Below, piece after piece: positions 21,711 through 48,546 of a stretch of DNA of 64,000 bases; within the stretch, counting starts at the first letter, position 1; every line of letters begins with the position of its first letter. The stretch is from the IMG/VR virus record IMGVR_UViG_3300025410_000009, one strand, 5' to 3'. This DNA is from a virus. Lineage: Duplodnaviria; Caudoviricetes. The notes below the pieces were generated by a model. It searched no databases and was not told the origin of the DNA. It saw only the letters and a list, made by a program, of their open reading frames with translations. A program made the position numbers and the translations under genes.

Positions 21711-22671
21711 TGATGCGACTCGACCAAAATGGGCTGGTTTTAAACCAGTTGTGGTATCTGCGGAAACCTTCTGCAACATCAACCTGGGGATTGAAATCAA
21801 AGTCCCTACGGGCAGCATCAATGTTTAATGCACCACGGCTAGGGAAATCTAGATCGCGATTGCCGACTTCAATTGATCCTGAACCGGCAATGGACACAGC
21901 CAGTTCGGCAGCCTGTAATAGGGTAGTACTGTTGCTCTTGGTAATGTTATAAATTTTGTTTCGTGCTTGATCATTCGTGGAAGCAGCAGCAATACCGTGA
22001 GCTGCATCTTCAACATAGGTAAAGTCTAATTTTTCGTACGCACCATTGACCTTGAGCACTTGTCCGCGCATGGCTGCTAGCATGAATTTACTGATCACAC
22101 GATCTTCAACATCAAGCTCGCCATATACTGCACTGGGGCGAACAATCACATGATCAAAACATCTACGACGAGTGTAGTCTTGTACCAGGCGTTCGCCCAT
22201 GAGTTTCATGATACCGTACTGTCCTTGTGGGCGGCATTCAAAATCTTCACCAACATCGCTAACAAAATCTCCATACACCATACTGCTACTGACGTAGATG
22301 AATTTTTGTATTGCGTATTTTTTGCTGACTTCCAGCAGGTTAATCAAGCCAGTGCACATGACTTCACTAGCTTCAGCTGGATTAACATTGACCACTTTTT
22401 GTCTAGGAAAGCTGGCCAAATGTATCACTATGTTGGGCTTGAATTTGGCAAAAGTATCGTCTAAACGCCCGGCATCTCTGATGTCGTAAGTGACCAAGGT
22501 GCCAGTAAAGGTTTTAAGACGTTCGTCAACCAAGTAGCGCAACTCGTCAGAATTGACAAAACCGTAATCGGTCAAGCTGTCTACTACACAGCAATCGTGT
22601 CCTTGTTCGGTTAGAATACGTGTGACATGGTGCCCGATAAAACCTGCACCACCAGTTAAAAGAATTTTCAT
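21694..22671 (-). CDS. NAD-dependent nucleotide-sugar epimerase/dehydratase (extended SDR)
   Basis: GGAGFIG, HLAS, SSSMVYG and catalytic YGIMK (YxxxK). Confidence 0.92.
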   Translation of the reverse strand: MKILLTGGAGFIGHHVTRILTEQGHDCCVVDSLTDYGFVNSDELRYLVDERLKTFTGTLVTYDIRDAGRLDDTFAKFKPNIVIHLASFPRQKVVNVNPAEASEVMCTGLINLLEVSKKYAIQKFIYVSSSMVYGDFVSDVGEDFECRPQGQYGIMKLMGERLVQDYTRRRCFDHVIVRPSAVYGELDVEDRVISKFMLAAMRGQVLKVNGAYEKLDFTYVEDAAHGIAAASTNDQARNKIYNITKSNSTTLLQAAELAVSIAGSGSIEVGNRDLDFPSRGALNIDAARRDFDFNPQVDVAEGFRRYHNWFKTSPFWSSRINDNNI

Positions 22672-23570
22672 ACAGCCATCCTTGCATCAATTTTAGACCA
22701 GCTGGTGTAGCCGTCTAGGCGTATATCCGCCATGGTAAATTTAGTAATATCTCGAATTTCGGGGTTAAGCCAAAGTCGTGGGGCAGGTAAGGGTTCACGC
22801 CTTAATTGCTCTTTTACCTGCTCTATGTGATTCAAATATATATGGGCGTCGCCGAGTACGTGAACGAACTCGCCTACATCAAGATCGCACACTTGAGCGA
22901 TCATGGCCGTTAGCAAACTGTAGCTGGCTATGTTAAAGGGTACACCCAAAAACATATCGCAGGACCTTTGATACATTTGACACGACAACCGATTACCGGC
23001 CACATAAAACTGAGCAAGAACATGACACGGTGGGAGAGCCATCTGATCTAACTCTCCAGGATTCCATGCTGATAAGATATGTCTTCGTCCGTATGGGTCC
23101 TGCTTAATGCCCTCAATCAGGGCCAACAACTGATCAACTTCTTTGTAAAAAGGATCAAACCAAGTCTTGCCGTAATCGTCGTCGATGTCAGCAGGTGCAT
23201 TGGGCACATGTGTACGCCAGTGGCGCCATTGCACTCCATAAATCCTGCCTAAATCGCCTGAGTATTTAGCCTTACTGGCCCAATATGGCGCTGTGGCATT
23301 GTCGGACCAAATGGTTGTCTTGCTAGACTCGGCGCTACCATGTAAGATCTCTCGCAGCCGCTTTTCGTCCCCGGACCCTTCAATGAACCACAGCAATTCT
23401 GAAACAACACTACGCCAGGCCAGTTGCTTGGTGGTAACTGCTGGGAAGCCTTGTTGCAAATCATATCTCTGTTGCCGACCAAACACACTGATGGTACCAG
23501 TCCCGGTCCGATCGTCGCGTTGTTGGCCGTTGTCTAATACATCTTGCAACAATTCTAAATATTGTTTCAT
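22668..23570 (-). CDS. thyA: Thymidylate synthase
   Basis: DDRTGTGT, ELLWF, ALPPCH and YQRSCDMFLGVPFNIASY. The dUMP-specifying Asn is retained. Confidence 0.97.
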   Translation of the reverse strand: MKQYLELLQDVLDNGQQRDDRTGTGTISVFGRQQRYDLQQGFPAVTTKQLAWRSVVSELLWFIEGSGDEKRLREILHGSAESSKTTIWSDNATAPYWASKAKYSGDLGRIYGVQWRHWRTHVPNAPADIDDDYGKTWFDPFYKEVDQLLALIEGIKQDPYGRRHILSAWNPGELDQMALPPCHVLAQFYVAGNRLSCQMYQRSCDMFLGVPFNIASYSLLTAMIAQVCDLDVGEFVHVLGDAHIYLNHIEQVKEQLRREPLPAPRLWLNPEIRDITKFTMADIRLDGYTSWSKIDARMAV

Positions 23571-35825: not shown

Positions 35826-37112
35826 TCAATACCTATAAGTGTCTGACTTGAATGGCCCTGTGGTGTTGACACCAATGTATGCTGCCTGTTCATCGGTCAG
35901 TGCAGTTAGTGTAGCATTAATCTTGGCCAAATGCAAGCTAGCAACTTTTTCATCTAGATGTTTAGGCAACAGATACAGTTGGCCTCGAACATATTTGTCA
36001 GCATTGTTGAACATTTCAATCTGAGCAATGGCCTGATTGGTAAATGAATTTGACATAACAAAACTGGGGTGTCCGGTAGCACAGCCAAGATTCACCAAAC
36101 GTCCTTTGGCCAAAACAATGATGCGTTTGCCATCTGGGAATACAACATGATCCACTTGTGGTTTGATTTCTTCCCAGGTCAAGTCTGACAAGCTGGCAAT
36201 ATCAATCTCGCTGTCAAAGTGTCCAATGTTGCACACAATGCTTTGATTACGCATTTGTTCCATGTGTGCACGAGTGATCACATTGATGTTGCCGGTGGCA
36301 GTGACAAAGATGTCGGCCTTGTCGGCAGCATAATCCATTGTGACCACACGATAGCCTTCCATGGCAGCTTGTAGTGCACAGATGGGATCAACTTCGGTTA
36401 CCCATACTTGAGCGCTCAGTGCTCGCAAGGCTGCAGCCGAACCCTTGCCCACATCGCCAAATCCGCACACTACAGCCACTTTGCCAGCAATCATGACATC
36501 AGTGGCACGTTTGATAGCATCCACTAGACTTTCTCTGCAACCATACAAGTTGTCAAATTTGGTCTTGGTCACTGAGTCATTGACATTGATAGCAGGAATA
36601 CGCAAGGTACCGGCAGCAATACGTTCAACCAATTTGTGAATACCAGTGGTGGTTTCTTCGGTGACACCAATGATGCCATCTAGCAATTCGGGATAGAGAT
36701 CGTGTACACGGCCAGTCAAGTCATGTCCGTCGTCTAACAACATGTTGGGAGTCCAACCATCGGGTCCACGAACTGTTTGGTCAATACACCACCAGTATTC
36801 TTCTTCGGTTTCGCCCTTCCAGGCAAACACAGGAATACCCAGATCAGCAATGGCGGCTGCAGCATGATCCTGTGTAGAGAAGATGTTGCAACTGCTCCAA
36901 CGCACACTGGCACCCAAGGCCACCAAGACCTTGATCAAGACTGCAGTTTGAATGGTCATGTGCAATGAACCAGTGATACGTGCACCTGCTAACGGCTGTT
37001 GTGCTTGATATTCTTGCAAGATAGACATCAAGCCGGGCATTTCGCTTTCGGCAATGGCGATCTCTCGATGTCCCCATGCTGCCAGGGAGATGTCTGCTAC
37101 TTTGTAATCCAT
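35826..37112 (-). CDS. ahcY: Adenosylhomocysteinase (SAH hydrolase)
   Basis: [60 protein letters not shown] and [14 protein letters not shown]. Confidence 0.97.
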
Positions 37113-37122
37113 GTTATTCCTT

Positions 37123-37530
37123 TTAATTTTTATGATGTTGCCACACAGTGTCGGATCCACCTAGGTGTCCCCAATCACTGTCTACTGTCAATTTACTTGA
37201 AATGCCACCACGTGGGCGGAACTCAATTTCTAATCTAATACGATCGGGCTCGTAAGCTGCCATCAAGTGCTTGTACATGACATCTAGCGCCCGCTCATAA
37301 CTAATTATGGTACTTCGGTACTGGAACAAATAATTCTTTAGACTCTTGAGTTCTATAGTTTTATCTTTGCCGTAGAACCATATGGTAATAAAGCCAAAGT
37401 CGGGTTGGTCACGAACACCCAGGAAAGTGAATTCTGGGATTGTGATTTTCTGTTCGTAACCACGTGCAGCATTGGGTAGAGATTTTAGGATCGAACCATC
37501 GATCGTGTTCCACAGTTTCTTTTCAGTCAT
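37123..37530 (-). CDS. queF: QueF type I-like T-fold protein lacking the catalytic Cys
   Basis: [14 protein letters not shown] aligns to QueF PEFTSLCPxTGQPDF with C replaced by G. The QueF motif ELKSLKNYL, the downstream conserved Glu (SYE) and F.PRGGIS are retained. Confidence 0.75.
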
Positions 37531-37532
37531 GA

Positions 37533-38624
37533 TTAAAACAAGTTAATTTTTTCCCAAGGCAATTCAACCTTGCCAAAATGTCCGTAATTGGTGGTTGCGC
37601 TGTAGATTGGACGGAACAGATCAAAACGATCAATAATGCCCTTGGGAGTAAGATCCACGTTGTCTTGAATCCACTGAGTCAGTGCACGACTGTTATGATC
37701 ACTTTCAACATAAAAGCTCATGGGATCTTTCATGCCAATGGCATAACTGATCTGCACAGTGGCCCATTTGGCTCGACCAGTGGCCACAATGTTCTTGGCC
37801 AAGTAGCGCATCATGTATGCTGCCGAGCGATCCACCTTGGTGGGGTCTTTGCCCGAGAAAGCACCGCCGCCGTGTGGAGCATAACCGCCATAAGTGTCCA
37901 CAATGATCTTGCGTCCAGTTAATCCGGTATCACCATCAGGTCCACCAATCACAAAACGGCCAGTGGGATTGATAAAGAACTCGGTGTGACTATCAATGTA
38001 CTTGGCTGGAATTGCAGATCTAATGATTTGATCTACTCGTGTACGCACAGTTTCAATATCAACATCGGGTGCATGCTGTGTTGAGCAAACAATCTTGGCA
38101 ATACGCACTGGATTGTTGTTGTCATCGTATTCAAAAGTGACTTGACTCTTGGCATCGGGCCGCAACCAAGTTTCGCCACTTTTTCTAGCAAGTGCAAGTG
38201 CCTGTACCACTTGGTGGCTCCAGTAGATGGCACTGGGCATCAAGTTACCAGTTTCAGTAGATGCATATCCAAACATGAGACCTTGGTCGCCAGCACCAAA
38301 AGTGTCGGTGCCTAGTGTAATGTCAGCACTCTGTCCGTGTAAGAGATTGGTAATCTGCACATCGCGCCAGTCAAAACCTTCTTGTTCATAACCGATATCT
38401 TTGATTACATTACGAATAGTGGTTTCGACTTGAGCGTTGTCTAGTGTGCCCTTATACTCACCGGCCACTATCACTTTGTTAGTGGTAACCAATGTTTCAC
38501 ATGCACACCGCATGGTGGGGTCTTGGTGGGCCATGACCAAATCAAGAATACCATCACTGATGGCATCTGCCACCTTATCTGGATGTCCTTCGCTAACACT
38601 TTCGCTTGTAAATAAGTAACTCAT
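37533..38624 (-). CDS. metK: S-adenosylmethionine synthetase
   Basis: LFTSESVSEGHPDKVADAISD, GAGDQGLMFGYA, DTGLTGRKIIVDTYGG and GGGAFSGKDPTKVDRS. Start at MSYLF. Confidence 0.97.
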   Translation of the reverse strand: MSYLFTSESVSEGHPDKVADAISDGILDLVMAHQDPTMRCACETLVTTNKVIVAGEYKGTLDNAQVETTIRNVIKDIGYEQEGFDWRDVQITNLLHGQSADITLGTDTFGAGDQGLMFGYASTETGNLMPSAIYWSHQVVQALALARKSGETWLRPDAKSQVTFEYDDNNNPVRIAKIVCSTQHAPDVDIETVRTRVDQIIRSAIPAKYIDSHTEFFINPTGRFVIGGPDGDTGLTGRKIIVDTYGGYAPHGGGAFSGKDPTKVDRSAAYMMRYLAKNIVATGRAKWATVQISYAIGMKDPMSFYVESDHNSRALTQWIQDNVDLTPKGIIDRFDLFRPIYSATTNYGHFGKVELPWEKINLF

Positions 38625-38644: not shown

Positions 38645-38923
38645 TTAAACTGTAACCAATGCCCATATCAGGTGTTCGTCTCTGCTGTGCCACCGTGTTT
38701 CATAAACTGGTTCACCAGGACCAGTCCATGTTGCGGTGCCTTGATAGCCACGCCGGAACCAAATAAGTTTATCGGTAAGTGCACACCGTTTGGGCAACAG
38801 CGCAAACTTTTCTTTCCATACCGCTCTATGATAAAATGCATCCTGATGGAATTTGTACCAGTGTCCATCACTCATCAGCTCAGGACTTTTTGCAAGTTGG
38901 CCTTCATAGCTGAATCCAAACAT
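38645..38923 (-). CDS. Hypothetical protein
   Basis: Start MFGFSYEG, 1 nt after the queE stop. Confidence 0.5.
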   Translation of the reverse strand: MFGFSYEGQLAKSPELMSDGHWYKFHQDAFYHRAVWKEKFALLPKRCALTDKLIWFRRGYQGTATWTGPGEPVYETRWHSRDEHLIWALVTV

Positions 38924-38924
38924 G

Positions 38925-39773
38925 TCAAGTGCCCCATTCGTTCTTGAATAGCGGTACTTGCAATCGATCACTATAACGCCAACCACGTGTCAGTGCCATT
39001 AAGGCCACTGCTTTGTTGTTTAATGCATATACACTTTCAACACCGCCCACTGGCATCAAATAAACATGTCCAGTAAATCCAGCTCTACGATATTCGTCAA
39101 CTGCTTGCTCGGCATCACGCAAATCTTGCTCGGTGGATACAACAAACTTCAAATAGGTGGTTCCCACTTCTTCGTATGCACACACAATCTCGGGCTTGAT
39201 AGCATCTTCCCACTTCTCGCCGCTTGCTGGAAGTTTAGCACTCACTGAGAATGTGATTTCGTTATCAAAACCAGTACCTATCCATTCAATTAAATAGTCT
39301 TTAAATTCTGGAGTTAAGTTTTGAGTACCATTTGTTTCAAAGGTGATTTCTTTTAGATCTGCCATCTTGGGATGACTTAACAAGTCAGGATAAGCACGTT
39401 GCCAACCCAACAAGGGCTCGCCGCCCGTGATCACCAAATGTTCATCTTTCCACGTACCATGCGGAATAATATCCATAATACGCTCGGCAATTGCGTCAGT
39501 ATCAAGTAAGGGAGATAGATGCTTAAAATCAGGATGCCAACTGGCATAGCTATCACAACCGGTAGTGACAAGAGGAAGTTCTTCATATTTGTTATACAAG
39601 TGCATCACTTGGGCAAGGTCTTCAGCTTCGGTACTCAGCTGGCCTCGTGGCATGCCAAATCCTGCACAGCGGAAATTACAGCCGAAAGTACGTAAAAAGA
39701 CACTAGGTACACCCATGTACCTTCCTTCTCCCTGTACGCTGTAAAACAGTTCTGCAATTTTAATCTTGCTCAT
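38925..39773 (-). CDS. queE: 7-carboxy-7-deazaguanine synthase (radical SAM)
   Basis: ELFYSVQGEG.YMGVPSVFLRTFGCNFRC...GCDS, VITGGEP, ETNGT, YLKFVV and RLQV. Confidence 0.93.
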   Translation of the reverse strand: MSKIKIAELFYSVQGEGRYMGVPSVFLRTFGCNFRCAGFGMPRGQLSTEAEDLAQVMHLYNKYEELPLVTTGCDSYASWHPDFKHLSPLLDTDAIAERIMDIIPHGTWKDEHLVITGGEPLLGWQRAYPDLLSHPKMADLKEITFETNGTQNLTPEFKDYLIEWIGTGFDNEITFSVSAKLPASGEKWEDAIKPEIVCAYEEVGTTYLKFVVSTEQDLRDAEQAVDEYRRAGFTGHVYLMPVGGVESVYALNNKAVALMALTRGWRYSDRLQVPLFKNEWGT

Positions 39774-40038
39774 AGACAGTGGACCATTTCTTTAGTTTTG
39801 CAATTTTGTTGTCGGCAGCTACACTGATCTGTTCACTGCCCACTATGTTGAATTTGATACACAAATCAATCATGGCTTGTAAATCACCCAGCTCTTCGGC
39901 CAAGTGTTCACGGTTGGTTTTAGGCTTACCGGGCTTGACGTTGTCTAAACCAAAACGATTACATTTACTGATGGCTTGTATAACTTCGGCACATTCTTCG
40001 GACAGAATGTTCATGACTTCAACAACTTGTTTATTCAT
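39760..40038 (-). CDS. MazG-like all-alpha NTP pyrophosphohydrolase
   Basis: ILSEECAEVIQAISK...LAEELGDL (ExxE...ExxD). Start reassigned to MNKQVV. Confidence 0.7.
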   Translation of the reverse strand: MNKQVVEVMNILSEECAEVIQAISKCNRFGLDNVKPGKPKTNREHLAEELGDLQAMIDLCIKFNIVGSEQISVAADNKIAKLKKWSTVYEQD

Positions 40039-40174
40039 CATCATGCCGATTGTTTTGTTCAATGCCGTACTGTTCATACAACCACTTGATAAAACGCTCA
40101 ATGTCAAGGCTGGGATATGCATACATTTTGTATGCCACGGTGACTTTCTCTAACCATTCTTTATCTTTTAACAT
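40031..40174 (-). CDS. Small hypothetical protein (47 aa; not in ORF track)
   Basis: Read manually as MLKDKEWLEKVTVAYKMYAYPSLDIERFIKWLYEQYGIEQNNRHDDE*. It has a GAGG RBS and overlaps the start of the next gene. Confidence 0.6.
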   Translation of the reverse strand: MLKDKEWLEKVTVAYKMYAYPSLDIERFIKWLYEQYGIEQNNRHDDE

Positions 40175-40245: not shown

Positions 40246-40440
40246 CTAGATTTGGTTCCAGTGGCATATGACGCCGGCTATGATAAAACAATTGGTCATG
40301 ACATACGACAGCACAATCACAGTGCGTATACCAGCAACACGATCGGCTTCTTGATCGGTGTTGCTGGTCTTTTCGCCCAGGGCCTTGGCCCATAGACGCC
40401 AAAGCGTTTTAACCTTCGTAGATAGCCGAATTAGCACCAT
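40246..40440 (-). CDS. Small membrane-associated hypothetical protein
   Basis: WRLWAKALGEK...IRTVIVLSYVMTNCFIIAGVICHW has a hydrophobic C-terminal segment. The start is uncertain. Confidence 0.5.
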   Translation of the reverse strand: MVLIRLSTKVKTLWRLWAKALGEKTSNTDQEADRVAGIRTVIVLSYVMTNCFIIAGVICHWNQI

Positions 40441-40894
40441 GTTCGAATACTTCAACTGATTTGATTCTTACACTGGGGTTAATGGGGTAACGTTGGTCAC
40501 CTTGAGTCAGTAGCTCGGCCATTTTGTCGTAGCACATCTTGGCAAACATTTCGCAACCGACACCAGGCACAATGCGTAAATCGCATACACCGCTGTCTTC
40601 GAATCCACCACCAATGGCGTTCAGTTGCTTGAAAGTTTCCAAGTGTGGATCATCTTCGGCAATGACCAAGGTGTGATCAAACATGGTGTCGGCCCAGGCC
40701 TTGAATCCTTTGAGACCACCAAAGTCCATGCACCAGTTTTTGTCATCCAGTGTGTCGCACTCAAATACGAGCTTGATGCCAATTGAGTAACCATGCAATG
40801 TCGAGCAGTGGCTATGTGAAGCACGCCACTGTCTAAAACAGCAGGACAGCCCTCTGTCGTTACCGTATGTTTTTGTTGAGTAAAATTTTGCCAT
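40409..40894 (-). CDS. queD: 6-carboxy-5,6,7,8-tetrahydropterin synthase
   Basis: CSTLHGY (CxxxHG), W..DFG.LK...FDH and GCE..A...E.FE. Confidence 0.92.
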   Translation of the reverse strand: MAKFYSTKTYGNDRGLSCCFRQWRASHSHCSTLHGYSIGIKLVFECDTLDDKNWCMDFGGLKGFKAWADTMFDHTLVIAEDDPHLETFKQLNAIGGGFEDSGVCDLRIVPGVGCEMFAKMCYDKMAELLTQGDQRYPINPSVRIKSVEVFEHGANSAIYEG

Positions 40895-42473: not shown

Positions 42474-43220
42474 TTACCTTGGTGCAAATTCTTGCTGTAG
42501 TTTGATGTTGTCAAAAAATTCTTTTTTGGTATTACCGTCGTCTTTAAAAGAACCTTTTAGTACAGTGGTCTGTGTTAGACTAGAGTGTGCCATGATGCCA
42601 CGATTCTCACAGCATCCATGTGTCATCTGCATGTATACACCGATGTCATCTGCGCCTGTGGCCTTGCCTATTTCTTTAGCAATGTCGTTACAAAGTTCCT
42701 CCTGGAGAGTACCCCGTCGGGCACACCATTGTGCAATACGTGTATACTTTGATAAGCCAATAAGTTTCTGAGCCGCAATAATGCCAATATAAGCAACACC
42801 AGTAACGGGTTGGTGATGATGGCTACACATGCTACGAAGCTCACTACGAACCACTAGCATGCCCTCATAACGATCCGCTGAGTCATTTGGAAATGCTGTA
42901 GCGTCGGGTGCTGGGTCATATCTACCTGCCATTACTTCGTTAAAATACATCTTGGCCAGTCTACGTGCTGTACCTTTACTGTTAGGATCGGTTTCGCGAT
43001 CAATGAGTAATCGATCTAGTACTGTTTCAAAAGCCTCTGCGGCTTCGTCAATAAGTTTTTCTTTGAATTCTTCACTAACGTATTCGCTAATGTTATCACC
43101 TGCCCAAAAACGCTTGCCCTCGCGTTTCATTTTAAAGCGAAGGTGATCGCCTAAGTAGGCTTCTTCATATCCGCCATCGCCTGCCATTGCGTCCAGGCCT
43201 GTTTCATTTTTAGTTGTCAA
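42474..43220 (-). CDS. folE: GTP cyclohydrolase I
   Basis: TARRLAKMY, SMCSHHHQP, GLSKYTRI, QEEL and HGCCENRG. Confidence 0.95.
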   Translation of the reverse strand: MTTKNETGLDAMAGDGGYEEAYLGDHLRFKMKREGKRFWAGDNISEYVSEEFKEKLIDEAAEAFETVLDRLLIDRETDPNSKGTARRLAKMYFNEVMAGRYDPAPDATAFPNDSADRYEGMLVVRSELRSMCSHHHQPVTGVAYIGIIAAQKLIGLSKYTRIAQWCARRGTLQEELCNDIAKEIGKATGADDIGVYMQMTHGCCENRGIMAHSSLTQTTVLKGSFKDDGNTKKEFFDNIKLQQEFAPR

Positions 43221-43295: not shown

Positions 43296-44273
43296 TTATG
43301 GCAGTACATTATACCGTTTTTGCCAATTCCATGCAGTTGATATGATATTTTCTATATCACTATTGACCGGACGCCAAGGTGTCGCTGATTGAAATGCTGT
43401 GCTGTCAGCCACCAGTTCATCGGGGTCGCCAGCTCGAGGATCGCCCATTTGATAAGTGATCGGTGCACCAACTACGCGACTACAGCCAGCAACTATTTCC
43501 TGATTAGTGTGCCCACGACCAGTTCCCAAATTATAGATTCTTGACTCACCGGGTGTCATGGTGTGTGCCAGTCGTACTGCTTCTAGGTGTGCTTGAGCAA
43601 TATCGGTCACATGCAGGTAATCACGTATGCAGGTGCCGTCACGAGTGTTGTAGTTGTCGCCGTACAGCGTAAAAGGTTCTTGGCGCTGATGGGCACTCAG
43701 CACTCGCGGAATCATATGCGTATCATCTGCTACATGGCCCAGGTCAACATCGGCATCGGCACCGGCAGCATTAAAATAACGCAGTATCACACCGCGATGT
43801 TGATGTGCTTGGCAGTGATCTTGTATCACTTGCTCGCACATGAGTTTGCTCCACCCATAGGGATTTATGGGCTGTGTTGGTGCAGTCTCAGGGATTGGAC
43901 TGGTGCATTTGTTGCCATATGTGGCTGCACTACTACTGAACACAATAATGCCACGCCAATCGCTTAATTCCACCAACATTTGATTGGTTTTGGCCACATT
44001 ATTGCTATAATATTCGCCAGGATTGCCAATACTGGGACCTACTAGGCTAGTACCGGCACAATGCACAACAACACCAACCTTTTCAAGGTCAGCAGTGGTG
44101 GCAACGAAGTCGGCAAAGTCGCCCATGATCCAGTGGTCCAGGTATTTTGCTGCCTCGGGAATGGTACAATGTCGATCAATCCCAATCACACGGCAACCGG
44201 CCTCTTTGAACACCTTGGCAGTATGAGCACCAATGAATCCTAGAGCGCCGGTAATGATTACAGATCTTGACAT
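43296..44273 (-). CDS. galE: UDP-glucose 4-epimerase
   Basis: GALGFIG, VVHCAG.S.VG.S...P..YY.NN, FSSSAATYG, YGWSK, LRYFNAAGA and DGTCIRDYLHVTDIA. Confidence 0.9.
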   Translation of the reverse strand: MSRSVIITGALGFIGAHTAKVFKEAGCRVIGIDRHCTIPEAAKYLDHWIMGDFADFVATTADLEKVGVVVHCAGTSLVGPSIGNPGEYYSNNVAKTNQMLVELSDWRGIIVFSSSAATYGNKCTSPIPETAPTQPINPYGWSKLMCEQVIQDHCQAHQHRGVILRYFNAAGADADVDLGHVADDTHMIPRVLSAHQRQEPFTLYGDNYNTRDGTCIRDYLHVTDIAQAHLEAVRLAHTMTPGESRIYNLGTGRGHTNQEIVAGCSRVVGAPITYQMGDPRAGDPDELVADSTAFQSATPWRPVNSDIENIISTAWNWQKRYNVLP

Positions 44274-45448
44274 CAGTATTTGGTTTCGCGTGTGTGACGA
44301 CGATAGTCAGTGCCCATACGCAACATGCTGTCACCTTGGCCCTGCAGGATATCAATGATACGATCTACAGTACCATTGTTGCGATCACTGATCCGACCCA
44401 TGTCAGGATGAGGCCATGCCAACAGTTGTTCCAGCTTGTTGAGCGCATCTTCTATGCTCCAAGGCACATAAAGTCTAGTATGGTCGTTGGCAAAAGTTTC
44501 AGGAAAACTACGATAAGCGGGATATAATACATTACATCCAAGAGCATCAGCTTCCGATACAGTATTCGATACCCAGTCTTGTAACGCACAATTAAACACC
44601 ACACGGCTATCGTTGACAATGTTATAGTAATCATTCTTCTCAAGATTCTCGTAGATCTTGAGTTGACCCTGTGCAACCAAGTCGCGTGTGCGTTGCATGT
44701 AGCTTTCGCTGTTGGACTTGAGCCAACCACCGCTACATACACAAAACTCTAGAATTGACCCTGGATGCCGAGCAAAGTATGCTTCAATCAAGTCCATGTA
44801 AAAGTCTGGTTGTTTCTCTTGATCCCAACGTGCGCTGAACACCACACGATGTTTACGATCTTCAAATGGTTTGATATTGGCCACACGACCTTGCACTTCT
44901 GCTTTGCCAAATGCCAGGCCTGAAATGTTGTAGATGGGAGCGGTCCAGCCAGCAACCTTCATGTGCATGACCATTTCTTCGTTGGTGGCTAGTACACCAT
45001 CTACGAACGAGTCAACCATCTTTTCATATGCCGACATCCATTTTGACATGCCCCATACATGAACAAAATCATCTGGATCAATGGATTGAGCAAGACAACG
45101 GACAAAAATCCTAGGACGGTGAAGAGAATCGATTTGATCCAAAATATAAGGCAAGCTCTCGATACCGGGCTGAAACATGTCTTCAAAGTAGACAACATCT
45201 TCATTGTTCAATTCTCCTGCTTTCATCATGCGAATCAAGTTCATGAGCTGGCTCATACCAAAGTAGGTACGACCATGTGCATCCAACACCTGTCCGGTAA
45301 CAATGGCTTGATCGTTACTGAGTGTGTCTCCGGGAACCACAACATAGTCGATACCACGGCGATCAAACACCGCAGTATTCCACTCTTGTAACTGCAGAGT
45401 GTATCTTGCCTTATAGGGCTCTAGGCCCATATAATACAATTTACGCAT
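44273..45448 (-). CDS. GT-B (GT4/alpha-glucosyltransferase-like) glycosyltransferase
   Basis: Start reassigned to MRKLYYMGLE. VVFSARWDQEKQ (R...EK) and DWVSNTVSEADALGC (GT4-type Ex7E region) indicate a retaining GT-B enzyme. Confidence 0.7.
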   Translation of the reverse strand: MRKLYYMGLEPYKARYTLQLQEWNTAVFDRRGIDYVVVPGDTLSNDQAIVTGQVLDAHGRTYFGMSQLMNLIRMMKAGELNNEDVVYFEDMFQPGIESLPYILDQIDSLHRPRIFVRCLAQSIDPDDFVHVWGMSKWMSAYEKMVDSFVDGVLATNEEMVMHMKVAGWTAPIYNISGLAFGKAEVQGRVANIKPFEDRKHRVVFSARWDQEKQPDFYMDLIEAYFARHPGSILEFCVCSGGWLKSNSESYMQRTRDLVAQGQLKIYENLEKNDYYNIVNDSRVVFNCALQDWVSNTVSEADALGCNVLYPAYRSFPETFANDHTRLYVPWSIEDALNKLEQLLAWPHPDMGRISDRNNGTVDRIIDILQGQGDSMLRMGTDYRRHTRETKY

Positions 45449-45671
45449 AGCGACCCTGCTTGATTGCCCAGCCCCAGTTGTCACGGGGCCACTTGCCACG
45501 CTTGGTACGCATGTAGTCACCATATGGGCTACGCTCATTGCCCAAGTCGCTCTCATCAAAGAAGTAACCTTGACGTACACAAAAATCGCGATACTCATCG
45601 AGGGTGTTGAAAATGTTTTCAACCTCGGGTTTCATACGCAAATACTTCTTAATCCATGCTGGCTGTGCCAT
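45441..45671 (-). CDS. Hypothetical protein
   Basis: 76-aa ORF with AAGGA RBS. Confidence 0.6.
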   Translation of the reverse strand: MAQPAWIKKYLRMKPEVENIFNTLDEYRDFCVRQGYFFDESDLGNERSPYGDYMRTKRGKWPRDNWGWAIKQGRYA

Positions 45672-45680
45672 ATTATTTCC

Positions 45681-46130
45681 TTAAACGCTAATAAGTTGAG
45701 GGAGGTGAGTTTCATATTCAATGAAGGCTCCGTTTTCACCATCTTCGGAAACTTCAATCCAGACCGAACGGCCAGGATATCGTGCAGCAATCTGTACATA
45801 CAGATCGTCTGAAATCATTTCACAAGATTTATAATCAAGTTTTAGTACTGCATCTTGGCTATTGTACAACGAAATCAACCAACGTTTGAATTGGATAAAT
45901 TCAATGTCACGATCGTTGTGCAACACGTCGATGGCCACTCTAAAGTGGAACATGTGACGATGTGGGCTGGCCAAAAAAGATACATCATATTCGTCGCCAG
46001 TGGCCAAATAGGGATCTGTGCCGGCTGCCGGGTAGCAGTGAATTCCTTCTTTTTCAAAGGTGACCCAAATTTTACGTCGGGCACGTTGTTTGATACGTTC
46101 GATTTGATCGCGTTCTTGATATGTGGTCAT
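45681..46130 (-). CDS. dpdL: QueD-paralog T-fold protein, DpdL-like (predicted CDG decarboxylase)
   Basis: SFLASPHRHMFHFRV matches the LxxxHRHxF signature I recall for DpdL. Also DRDIEFIQFKRWL and SCEMI. It lies inside the deazaguanine cluster. Confidence 0.65.
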   Translation of the reverse strand: MTTYQERDQIERIKQRARRKIWVTFEKEGIHCYPAAGTDPYLATGDEYDVSFLASPHRHMFHFRVAIDVLHNDRDIEFIQFKRWLISLYNSQDAVLKLDYKSCEMISDDLYVQIAARYPGRSVWIEVSEDGENGAFIEYETHLPQLISV

Positions 46131-46947: not shown

Positions 46948-48546
46948 TTAACTCTCCAAATCAGTTAATCGAGTTTCGTCTAGTGTGGGTTCAACATAGG
47001 GTTCTTCTGAGAACAGCATGCCAAACATGGTGTTGGAATTCTTGGCCTTTTTGCCTTTGAATCCACGAGTGCCCACAATCTCCATCCAGTAAGTGTCGTA
47101 CTTTTCAATGATGCTTTCGGCTGTGGCTCGATCGGGTGCAGCAAAAATGCTGTCGACAATGTCTTCAAAATAGGCATAGTCTCCAGTACTGCGTCGCATC
47201 ATGGCCGGATGTTCGCCGGCATCAAAGCGTCGATTGGCCTCCTGAACCGCAGTCAAGTGCATCCATACATTATGACCCATCAACAGCATGTAGCTGAAAC
47301 TGTCCCAGCTGGTTTTGCCCCATTTGCCGTTTTTGTTGAAATCAGGCAGTACTGCATAAAGATCAGGATCTTTAAAGTTTTCTTCTGTGATGGTGACTCC
47401 GGGCTTGGGTGTACCTGCTTTGTAGATACAGATATCACGCATGGTCAACATGTCACTGACTGGACTTTCTTGCCAGTTGTTGTAGATACCGTCAGCCACA
47501 ACACCAGTTGACCACTTGCGTGTGTCAGTGGCATATTTTTTATCATCAGCACTGGGAGCCATACGATAGCTCCATTTGCCATCCTGCGGGAAAACATTTT
47601 CGTAATAGACCTGTCCGTTGGCAGTGGCCAAGAATGGACTGGCACAGTCAAAACTGATTGTGAAATTGGGATTCACATACCGACGAACTGCACGTTGTAT
47701 CACAGTCAGCAACACAGCCCATTCCAGCTTGCTGGTGCCCAAGAAGTGCATCCAGTCGTGCACACCAGTTTGCAGTAGATTATCGTAGCGTAGGGCCACT
47801 AGGCGTTTCAACACAAGATGTACATCACACATGTTTTGACCACCCATGCCCCAGCCGTTGAAATGACGTCCTGGGTACTTTGCAGGATCACAGTAGTCCT
47901 TCATGGTCTGATACCAGTCTTCGGCTTCGTTGTGATTGGCACCCTGTAACACATTCAAGAATCGAGCACCACCATTTTCAATGCCGCGGCGATTGGCAAT
48001 AAAGTATTCGTTGTTGAATTTGGTCGCAGCCACAGCTTGACTGTGTGTGGTGATTTGGCATTTACTACTGGCAAAAGGATCCTTGACCACCCATGTGGGA
48101 ATATCCAGTGTCATTCCGTAATCGGCAATGCCATCTAACCATTTGAGCACAGCCTCACGTTTGGCCTGTGCACGTGGGCAACCGGAGTTGGCTTTCCAGT
48201 CACCTTCCCACAAGCCTTTGGCAATTTGGAATCCGCCCGAGTCACCCAGCACAGTGGTACCAGGTTCACGATTGCGAACCATGTCTTCGCTCCAGTCCTG
48301 TCGAGTAAGATCAAGATTGGCATGTCCACCTGAGTATAGACTCCAACGATACGGGAACAGGGCTTTCTGACTATTGAGCCAGTTCATTTGCTCCATGTCA
48401 ACAAATCCCTGTGGGAATCGTGCAGGATCCACATACGGTTCATTGCGTTGACGACCCACAAACGTGGCATAAAAACCGCTAATGGCCGGTAAGAATACAG
48501 CGTAGTCGTTTTGTTTAGCGGTTAAGTTATCCTGTTGTTGTTCCAT
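46948..48546 (-). CDS. dpdA: tRNA-guanine transglycosylase-fold protein, likely a DNA deazaguanine transglycosylase (DpdA-like)
   Basis: LGDSGGFQI, TLDIP, NVLQG, GWGMGG, HFLGT, nucleophile-bearing SFDCASP and C-terminal GHN. Context: folE/queD/queE. Confidence 0.78.
   Translation of the reverse strand: MEQQQDNLTAKQNDYAVFLPAISGFYATFVGRQRNEPYVDPARFPQGFVDMEQMNWLNSQKALFPYRWSLYSGGHANLDLTRQDWSEDMVRNREPGTTVLGDSGGFQIAKGLWEGDWKANSGCPRAQAKREAVLKWLDGIADYGMTLDIPTWVVKDPFASSKCQITTHSQAVAATKFNNEYFIANRRGIENGGARFLNVLQGANHNEAEDWYQTMKDYCDPAKYPGRHFNGWGMGGQNMCDVHLVLKRLVALRYDNLLQTGVHDWMHFLGTSKLEWAVLLTVIQRAVRRYVNPNFTISFDCASPFLATANGQVYYENVFPQDGKWSYRMAPSADDKKYATDTRKWSTGVVADGIYNNWQESPVSDMLTMRDICIYKAGTPKPGVTITEENFKDPDLYAVLPDFNKNGKWGKTSWDSFSYMLLMGHNVWMHLTAVQEANRRFDAGEHPAMMRRSTGDYAYFEDIVDSIFAAPDRATAESIIEKYDTYWMEIVGTRGFKGKKAKNSNTMFGMLFSEEPYVEPTLDETRLTDLES

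Follow-up and report, generated by a model that had tools for sequence, protein, structure and literature searches.

A Cys-Less QueF-Family Protein (QueF*) of a Freshwater Jumbo Phage and Its Association with Genes of the Methionine/SAM Cycle

Introduction

The closest described relative of the protein treated in this paper is QueF of Bacillus subtilis, a T-fold enzyme which reduces preQ0 (EC 1.7.1.13). The C55A and C55S mutants of QueF are completely inactive, and the Cys, an Asp and a Glu are invariant across both QueF subfamilies (review, PMC13740343). The so-called QueF motif is described as involved in NADPH binding (PMC5699537). In the census by Mohammad et al. in 2017, sequences without Cys55 were removed as non-QueF (PMC5372742). 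QueF-Like (QueF-L), the archaeosine synthase of Crenarchaeota (PDB 5JYX), is a T-fold relative of QueF recruited to another reaction; it still has the catalytic Cys and forms a thioimide, but its NADPH site is gone (PMC5699537). A lost catalytic Cys is seen in DpdL, a further T-fold paralogue, which occurs in phage deazaguanine clusters without QueC; DpdL is a paralogue of QueD, carries the motif LxxxHRHxF and is proposed to be a CDG decarboxylase (Cui et al. 2023, PMC10516641). GTP cyclohydrolase I (FolE), which binds a guanine or pterin ring, also belongs to the T-fold superfamily.

This paper describes a Cys-less member of the QueF family, here designated QueF*, which is encoded in a stretch of viral DNA of 64,000 nucleotides; this whole stretch is called the window. 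Its source is an uncultured freshwater jumbo T4-like phage, as judged from tail-fibre PHROG matches and a contig of at least 239 kb. A megablast search of the region against cultured phages gave zero matches, and near-identical copies of the stretch are present in several freshwater metagenome runs; there were no RNA datasets among the listed public runs with a near-identical stretch. A literature search for QueF in phage, paralog, methionine synthase and auxotroph contexts found no description of a Cys-less QueF family or of a link between QueF and methionine.

Gene Order around QueF* in Phages

The genes of the window that are discussed in this paper are collected in Table 1.

Table 1. Position, strand and basis of assignment of genes in the window.
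Feature	Coordinates	Strand	Basis or remarks
ThyA	22668-23570	(-)	
ahcY (S-adenosylhomocysteine hydrolase)	35826..37112	(-)	Pfam AdoHcyase, 425 bits
QueF* (Cys-less QueF-family T-fold protein, 135 aa)	37123..37530	(-)	Pfam PF14489, alignment and model
metK (SAM synthetase)	37533..38624	(-)	Pfam S-AdoMet_synt N, M and C domains
ORF of 113 aa, candidate gene	38645-38986	(-)	no family match
QueE-like radical-SAM protein, divergent	38925-39773	(-)	family match
MazG	39760-40122	(-)	family match
QueD-like PTPS	40409-40894	(-)	family match
FolE	42474-43220	(-)	family match
Epimerase	43296-44273		
Glycosyltransferase	44273-45622		with the epimerase, between the DpdL-like gene and FolE
DpdL-like T-fold gene	45681-46130	(-)	LASPHRHMF; no Pfam match
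DpdA-like transglycosylase	46948-48546	(-)	GDSGGFQ; no Pfam match

The three genes metK, QueF* and ahcY are packed closely. As read from the sequence, the stop codon of metK lies 2 nt before the ATG of QueF*. The metK ORF is open from 38693, but the Pfam match sets in at the Met at 38624, which is the likely start. The likely start of ahcY is the ATG at 37112, 10 nt past the QueF* stop with AAGGA in between; this ORF is open to 37160, and the AdoHcyase match starts at residue 18 of the long form. A promoter and terminator scan gave counts at chance level and is at most a weak hint of co-transcription.

The order QueF*-metK-ahcY is found in a phage clade at 59% identity. Of 79 related viral loci, 39 have ahcY, as a rule immediately downstream, 29 have metK, and 62 have one or both in the flanks. 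These loci are close relatives, so their synteny counts as one lineage and not as independent evidence; the clade at 59% identity and the 44%-identical homologue described below are more independent. Two relatives, whose QueF* is about 80% identical, are rated complete by IMG/VR/CheckV, namely G001 (338 kb, with terminal repeats) and G002 (197 kb). In G001, metK is distant from QueF*, and ThyA and DHFR are present; G002 carries QueF*, but metK, ahcY, ThyA and DHFR were not found in it. Furthermore, in phage-like contigs (L085-L088) that encode a 44%-identical homologue (P0141), QueF* is followed by an HNH gene and then by an 848-aa MetH. This MetH is without a reactivation domain, and the gene between it and QueF* encodes an HNH-repeat endonuclease.

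Some other features of the window are recorded here. The QueE-like protein reaches about 55 bits against equivalog cut-offs above 200 and has Cys32-x3-Cys36 with the next Cys at residue 73, that is, no compact three-Cys cluster motif. As listed, the 113-aa ORF bridges the QueE-like gene and metK, overlapping the former at its end and the latter at its start. ThyA has no adjoining DHFR gene in the window; in G001 the two form a T4-like DHFR-ThyA pair.

Residues of QueF* and Loss of the Catalytic Cys

The QueF* ORF matches the Pfam QueF family PF14489 with 61.8 bits against a cut-off of 27.3, which is its sole Pfam match, and scores 77.4 bits with the NCBIfam preQ1-synthase equivalog TIGR03139 (QueF-II), below the cut-off of 86.9. 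A tblastn search alongside the megablast search against cultured phages gave nothing beyond distant canonical QueFs of at most 41% identity. In the HMMER alignment to B. subtilis QueF (PDB 4F8B/4FGC), the counterpart of a 12-residue stretch of the phage protein is FTSLCPKTGQPDF; Gly stands at the site of the catalytic Cys55, and the loop is shorter by one residue. Asp62 (of QPDF), Glu97 (SYE vs FHE) and the QueF motif (ELKSLKNY vs ESKSLKLY) are retained, and His96 and Phe95 are replaced by Tyr and Ser, respectively. The preliminary description of this DNA, made from the sequence by itself, had stated that the Cys motif is replaced while the Asp, the QueF motif and the substrate Glu are intact, and the alignment proves this accurate.

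The family signature, T-F-[LI]-G ... QPD ... ELKSLKxY ... SYER ... RGG, is complete in the phage protein, where it comprises E33, F36, G38, Q42-P43-D44, E60-L-K-S-L-K65-x-Y67, S77-Y78-E79-R80 and R107-G-G109. Within it, D44 corresponds to Asp62, E79 to Glu97 and E60-LKSLK-x-Y67 to the QueF motif with Glu78, and in QueF* these residues vary hardly or not at all. The DpdL motif LxxxHRHxF is absent from this ORF. An identity of the ORF with DpdL was considered and rejected: DpdL is derived from QueD, and the window has a separate DpdL-like gene elsewhere (Table 1).

The absence of Cys is not peculiar to the window. TFLG without Cys is found in all 120 of the closest 90%-identity clusters (77-100% identical), so no close homologue keeping the Cys came to light, and T-F-[LI]-G, QPD, ELKSLKxY, SYER and RGG persist to about 40% identity among the representatives of 50%-identity clusters. 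Since 120 of 120 clusters, and the clade down to about 40% identity, are without the Cys, chance or error is not the cause; the absence of Cys is neither a sequencing error nor recent decay. The median dN/dS is 0.06 for phage orthologues of 77 loci (813 pairs); comparisons with the window copy were synonymously saturated. Therefore, the loss of Cys is clade-wide and under purifying selection, a point for which the preliminary description had proposed an alignment of phage homologues.

Among 43 diverse members, 16 positions do not vary (E33, F36, G38, Q42, P43, D44, E60, L61, K65, S77, Y78, E79, P95, R107, G108 and G109), and there is no conserved Cys or His. When 63 Cys-less and 41 Cys-bearing sequences were compared, the whole NADPH-type motif, the catalytic Asp, both ring-anchoring Glu residues and Arg-Gly-Gly (Arg125-Gly-Gly in B. 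subtilis QueF) were common to both. The fixed switches from the Cys-bearing to the Cys-less side are Ser53 to Phe, Cys55/Pro56 to Gly and Phe95 to Ser; in addition, on the Cys-less side Arg is fixed at position 98, after the anchor Glu, and position 130 is mostly Ser. These switches, together with the shorter loop, also set QueF* apart from the B. subtilis enzyme. QueF* is the converse of QueF-L in that it has lost the Cys and kept the NADPH motif. Unlike QueF*, FolE needs zinc-binding Cys and His residues and has no QueF motif.

A quick maximum-likelihood tree parts the 63 Cys-less from the 41 Cys-bearing sequences by one branch (SH-aLRT 95), with the phage protein on the Cys-less side. On this basis QueF* is an ancient, separate Cys-less sister family of unimodular QueF, distributed in bacteria, archaea and phages, and its homologues number in thousands. 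The wording of the preliminary description, a QueF homologue that has lost the catalytic cysteine, thus needs revision: the phage gene belongs rather to an old Cys-less sister family which is bacterial and archaeal as well.

Predicted Fold and Assembly

An AlphaFold2 model of QueF*, built from a 43-row alignment, has a mean pLDDT of 90.1. Its top matches in the PDB are the chains of B. subtilis QueF, a protein of similar size with the same T-fold (TM 0.77, 30-34% identity), followed by bimodular QueF, QueF-L (TM 0.63-0.65) and GTP cyclohydrolase I. A complex prediction with four copies gave an ipSAE of 0.57 against 0.00 for the best control; the runs share at least 70% of contacts, and the partner pLDDT is at least 79. 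When this procedure was calibrated, 20 of 30 proteins whose structures had been solved as pairs attained the mark, against 1 of 23 with a single-chain structure. Because the QueF decamer has already been solved, the four-copy result may reflect recall of, or likeness to, that structure.

In the four-copy model, strand 24-33 pairs with strand 106-116 of the neighbour, and residues 61, 64-65, 77 and 79-80 are at the predicted interface, as expected for an inter-subunit T-fold pocket; the motif residues would therefore lie between subunits. QueF* is thus predicted to be a T-fold ring oligomer with pockets between subunits, a ring oligomer being another feature that it would share with B. subtilis QueF.

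Methionine/SAM-Cycle Neighbourhoods in Cellular Genomes

Cellular homologues were collected from one genome per prokaryotic species with a profile made from an 11-row alignment, and the best 80 loci were taken; their neighbour genes were clustered and then annotated with Pfam. All 80 loci are Cys-less. The bacterial carriers include Chitinophagaceae, Cyclobacteriaceae, Marinilabiliaceae, Syntrophorhabdus and Myxococcota, and further carriers are SAR202/Dehalococcoidia, Pleioneaceae, Nitrotoga, Saccharibacteria, Poseidoniales and Thaumarchaeota. In an even sample of 251 Bacteroidota genomes, QueF* was carried by three.

The gene orders at these loci return repeatedly to methionine synthesis. 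In one type, metH is split, and QueF* lies between the homocysteine-S-methyltransferase half (about 338 aa) and the pterin/B12/reactivation half (about 897 aa), all on one strand with gaps of 8-69 nt. In Chitinophagaceae, QueF* stands between a Cys/Met-metabolism PLP enzyme (metC/B-like) and homoserine dehydrogenase (hom). Full-length MetH adjoins QueF* in Poseidoniales and Pleionea, a stand-alone Pterin_bind protein does so in three lineages, ThyA-DHFR is divergently adjacent to it in Saccharibacteria, and a PALP enzyme overlaps it by 4 nt. Altogether, a methionine or pterin-binding gene lies within 3.5 kb in 31 of the 80 cellular loci and within 300 bp in 30 of them; the other 49 have no methionine gene nearby.

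Moreover, the SAM riboswitch (RF00162) heads the operon in 12 of 12 scanned loci of the split-metH and metC/B-like-hom types; it was not detected in 15 other scanned loci, and the preQ1 riboswitch was detected in none of the 27. The preliminary description had taken the position between metK and ahcY as a hint of a SAM-linked step, and this hint gains in substance: the link to methionine and SAM recurs across phyla and under SAM riboswitches. The methionine/SAM cycle is, therefore, a well-supported pathway context of QueF*.

A different setting is seen in six Marinilabiliaceae loci (L145, L158, L163, L166, L171 and L183), where QueF* has a TrmA/RlmD-like RNA methyltransferase on one side and, on the other, a group of rhodanese, TusA-DsrE, class-V aminotransferase (cysteine-desulfurase) and AIR-synthase-family genes. 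By its gene content this group looks like a sulfur or selenium relay.

Proposed Role in One-Carbon Metabolism

Given these data, QueF* is probably an enzyme of one-carbon metabolism which is wrongly annotated as a queuosine enzyme. A fuller statement, to which we assign a little less than an even chance, is that this Cys-less sister family consists of oligomeric, probably NADPH-dependent enzymes of the methionine/SAM cycle with a folate or pterin substrate. We infer the use of NADPH, the class of substrate and the reaction; they are not observations. Against this reading speak the 49 cellular loci with no methionine gene nearby, the Marinilabiliaceae setting, the complete relative G002, in which metK, ahcY, ThyA and DHFR were not found, and Syntrophorhabdus, which has QueC and TGT with QueF* as its sole QueF-family gene.

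The argument proceeds from the retained residues. The Glu/Glu/Asp set would anchor a 2-amino-4-oxo-pyrimidine ring, be it that of guanine, deazaguanine or a pterin, and the Asp would act as the general acid. The missing thiol is needed only for the activation of the nitrile, and the second half of the QueF chemistry, the NADPH reduction of an exocyclic imine, is thiol-free. In the methionine context, folate is the metabolite with such a ring, and from the geometry the C7-linked carbon of preQ0 may be the positional counterpart of the N5-linked carbon of methylene- or methyl-tetrahydrofolate. QueF* may thus catalyze an NADPH-dependent hydride transfer to the exocyclic C=N carbon of a folate or pterin-type substrate, and thereby would supply or restore the methyl donor from which homocysteine is remethylated. 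The reduction of a folate or pterin is favoured because the ring-anchoring Glu pair, the Asp and the NADPH motif are kept, the nitrile thiol is lost and the context is methionine. The phage QueF*, translationally packed between metK and ahcY, presumably helps regenerate SAM for phage methyltransferases.

In its most specific form, which we consider unlikely in all its parts, this proposal would make QueF* a T-fold reductase which is free of flavin, depends on NADPH and acts on a folate or pterin, either on the N5 one-carbon unit or in the repair of oxidised methyl-folate. The methionine/SAM cycle of many bacteria, of some archaea and of a great number of freshwater phages would then include it as a regular member that has been overlooked, and phages would carry it with metK, ahcY or metH to drive the supply of methyl groups in the infected cell.

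The known enzyme nearest to such a function is MetF (MTHFR, PF02219), which supplies 5-methyl-THF to MetH. The proposed likeness is functional only, that is, an NAD(P)H-linked step serving methionine synthase in the same regulon; there is no relation of sequence or fold, and carrier genomes have MetF as a gene of its own. Mycobacteria possess flavin-independent MTHFRs. A replacement of MetF by QueF* is, however, unlikely: MetF (PF02219) is present in four of five carrier genomes tested, and the Marinoscillum copy is situated about 2.9 kb from QueF*, by coordinates just past metH_C; the genome of Syntrophorhabdus aromaticivorans (G008) gave no PF02219 match. A replacement of DHFR was rejected as well, as G001 has DHFR and ThyA together with QueF*, and in Saccharibacteria DHFR adjoins QueF*.

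The absence of any identified missing step in methionine synthesis, with MetF present in carriers, also speaks for a protein without catalysis. QueF* might be a binder, carrier or accessory, for example, a holder of folate or purine from which MetH receives a cofactor, or a helper protein of MetH. The position of the gene between the split metH halves with their short gaps agrees with this, and QueF C55A still binds preQ0 (PDB 4FGC). However, the conservation of the full NADPH-type motif and of Asp62, the catalytic acid in QueF, exceeds the needs of binding, and the gene is also found in phages and genomes without a nearby MetH. A purely non-catalytic function is accordingly judged unlikely, and a methionine/SAM-cycle enzyme remains the preferred reading.

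Relation to Queuosine and Deazaguanine Genes

If QueF* acted in the queuosine pathway, it would be expected to accompany QueC. Among 32 carrier genomes, QueC is absent in 20, and these 20 have QueF* only. Canonical QueF is found in 10 of the 32; all 10 are QueC-positive, so that it is retained alongside QueF* in 10 of the 12 QueC-positive carriers. The second QueF-family gene of these 10 carriers is bimodular (279-308 aa) and often adjoins queC. Since canonical QueF is found only with QueC and QueF* often without it, canonical QueF follows QueC, whereas QueF* does not. There are two exceptions: Syntrophorhabdus aromaticivorans (G008, L169) has QueC and TGT with QueF* and no Cys-bearing QueF, and one Niastella genome has a weak QueC-like match. 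In Niastella vici and Marinoscillum, TGT is present and QueC absent, so precursor salvage may be needed there.

The preliminary description had also held that the protein cannot be a normal nitrile reductase. Because the Cys55 mutants of QueF are dead (C55A and C55S, PMC13740343) and the family is independent of QueC, this can be upheld: on sequence grounds QueF* would not be a preQ0 reductase. It differs from QueF in its QueC independence and in its occurrence in methionine/SAM operons rather than queuosine ones.

In the window itself, FolE, QueD, QueE, DpdL-like and DpdA-like genes lie within 11 kb. The DpdL-like protein is 53% identical to a homologue of Acidovorax phage ACP17, and the DpdA-like protein is 37% identical to PA5oct-type jumbo-phage proteins. 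FolE, QueD, QueE, DpdL and DpdA would together constitute a QueC-independent set of the type proposed for 2'-deoxy-7-deazaguanine in DNA. QueC was found neither in the window nor in the complete relative G001, and in G002 and G004 the QueC model gave no more than a partial match of 26 bits, at its PP-loop end; for the window this agrees with the preliminary description, by which there may be no preQ0 if QueC is absent. The DpdL/DpdA-type set of the window is self-sufficient and therefore calls for no QueF. Furthermore, homologues of FolE, PTPS, QueE, DpdL, DpdA and TGT are found in neither G001 nor G002, and among the 79 related viral loci QueE is present in 18, FolE in 9, DpdL in 7 and DpdA in 3. 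QueF* is, consequently, independent of the deazaguanine set of the window, and the deazaguanine framing of the preliminary description finds no tie, as complete relatives keep QueF* without these genes.

A deazaguanine role might nevertheless take another form, in which QueF* binds or transforms preQ0, CDG or 7-deazaguanine for DNA modification, or reduces salvaged preQ0 by means of another nucleophile. All ring-anchoring residues of QueF are kept, Syntrophorhabdus has QueC and TGT with no canonical QueF, and the salvage that Niastella and Marinoscillum may need would supply a precursor, all of which agree with it, as does the gene set within 11 kb. Against it, however, are the inactivity of the C55A and C55S mutants, the complete phage relatives that lack the set, the canonical QueF already present beside QueC in most QueC-positive carriers, the operons with SAM and not preQ1 riboswitches, and the replacement of the stacking residues Phe95 and Ile130 by Ser. 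With this balance we regard a deazaguanine role as quite unlikely.

Other Explanations

What ahcY, metC, metH and the PALP enzyme have in common is a relation to homocysteine no less than to folate. QueF* might, therefore, serve the homocysteine/adenosine side of the cycle by redox or salvage of homocysteine-derived or purine-nucleoside products of AhcY, with no folate involved; its neighbours that make or use homocysteine are ahcY in 39 of 79 phage loci, the metC/B-like enzyme, the homocysteine-binding half of MetH and the PALP enzyme. However, in T-folds the retained Glu/Glu anchor marks the binding of 2-amino-4-oxo-pyrimidine rings and not of amino acids or adenine, and the ThyA-DHFR and stand-alone Pterin_bind neighbours point to folate, so that this is very unlikely. 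Finally, a functionless, decaying pseudo-enzyme or an assembly error, for which only the missing Cys speaks, is next to impossible, being already contradicted by the conservation data (a dN/dS of 0.06, 16 residues invariant across phyla and thousands of homologues) and by the tight operons under riboswitch control.

Significance

QueF* is a new functional variant within the QueF/T-fold family. Thousands of phage, bacterial and archaeal genes are labelled 7-cyano-7-deazaguanine reductase and are likely miscounted as queuosine or DNA-modification genes; the mislabelled genes are without the residue required for the reaction and track methionine genes instead. Defining the reaction of QueF* would add a step or an accessory factor to the methionine synthase/SAM cycle under SAM-riboswitch control, which ranks among the best-studied pathways, and a gene that is very common in freshwater phages would receive its proper functional reading. 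In addition, it would place beside QueF-L a second case in which the QueF scaffold has been turned to new chemistry.

Fusion Proteins

Several fusion proteins of the family were met (P0127, P0271, P0273, P0272 and P0275). The partners were considered as a clue to the function of QueF* and set aside as uninformative; the HPPK partner belongs to a Cys-bearing QueF. In two metagenomic clusters, Cys-less QueF* carries a Lar-like zinc ribbon as fusion partner. P0275 combines a domain of HPPK, an enzyme of folate synthesis, with canonical Cys-bearing QueF, P0272 combines a peptidase M19 domain with a Myxococcota-type QueF*, and P0273 has an N-terminal domain of about 150 aa without family assignment in front of QueF*.
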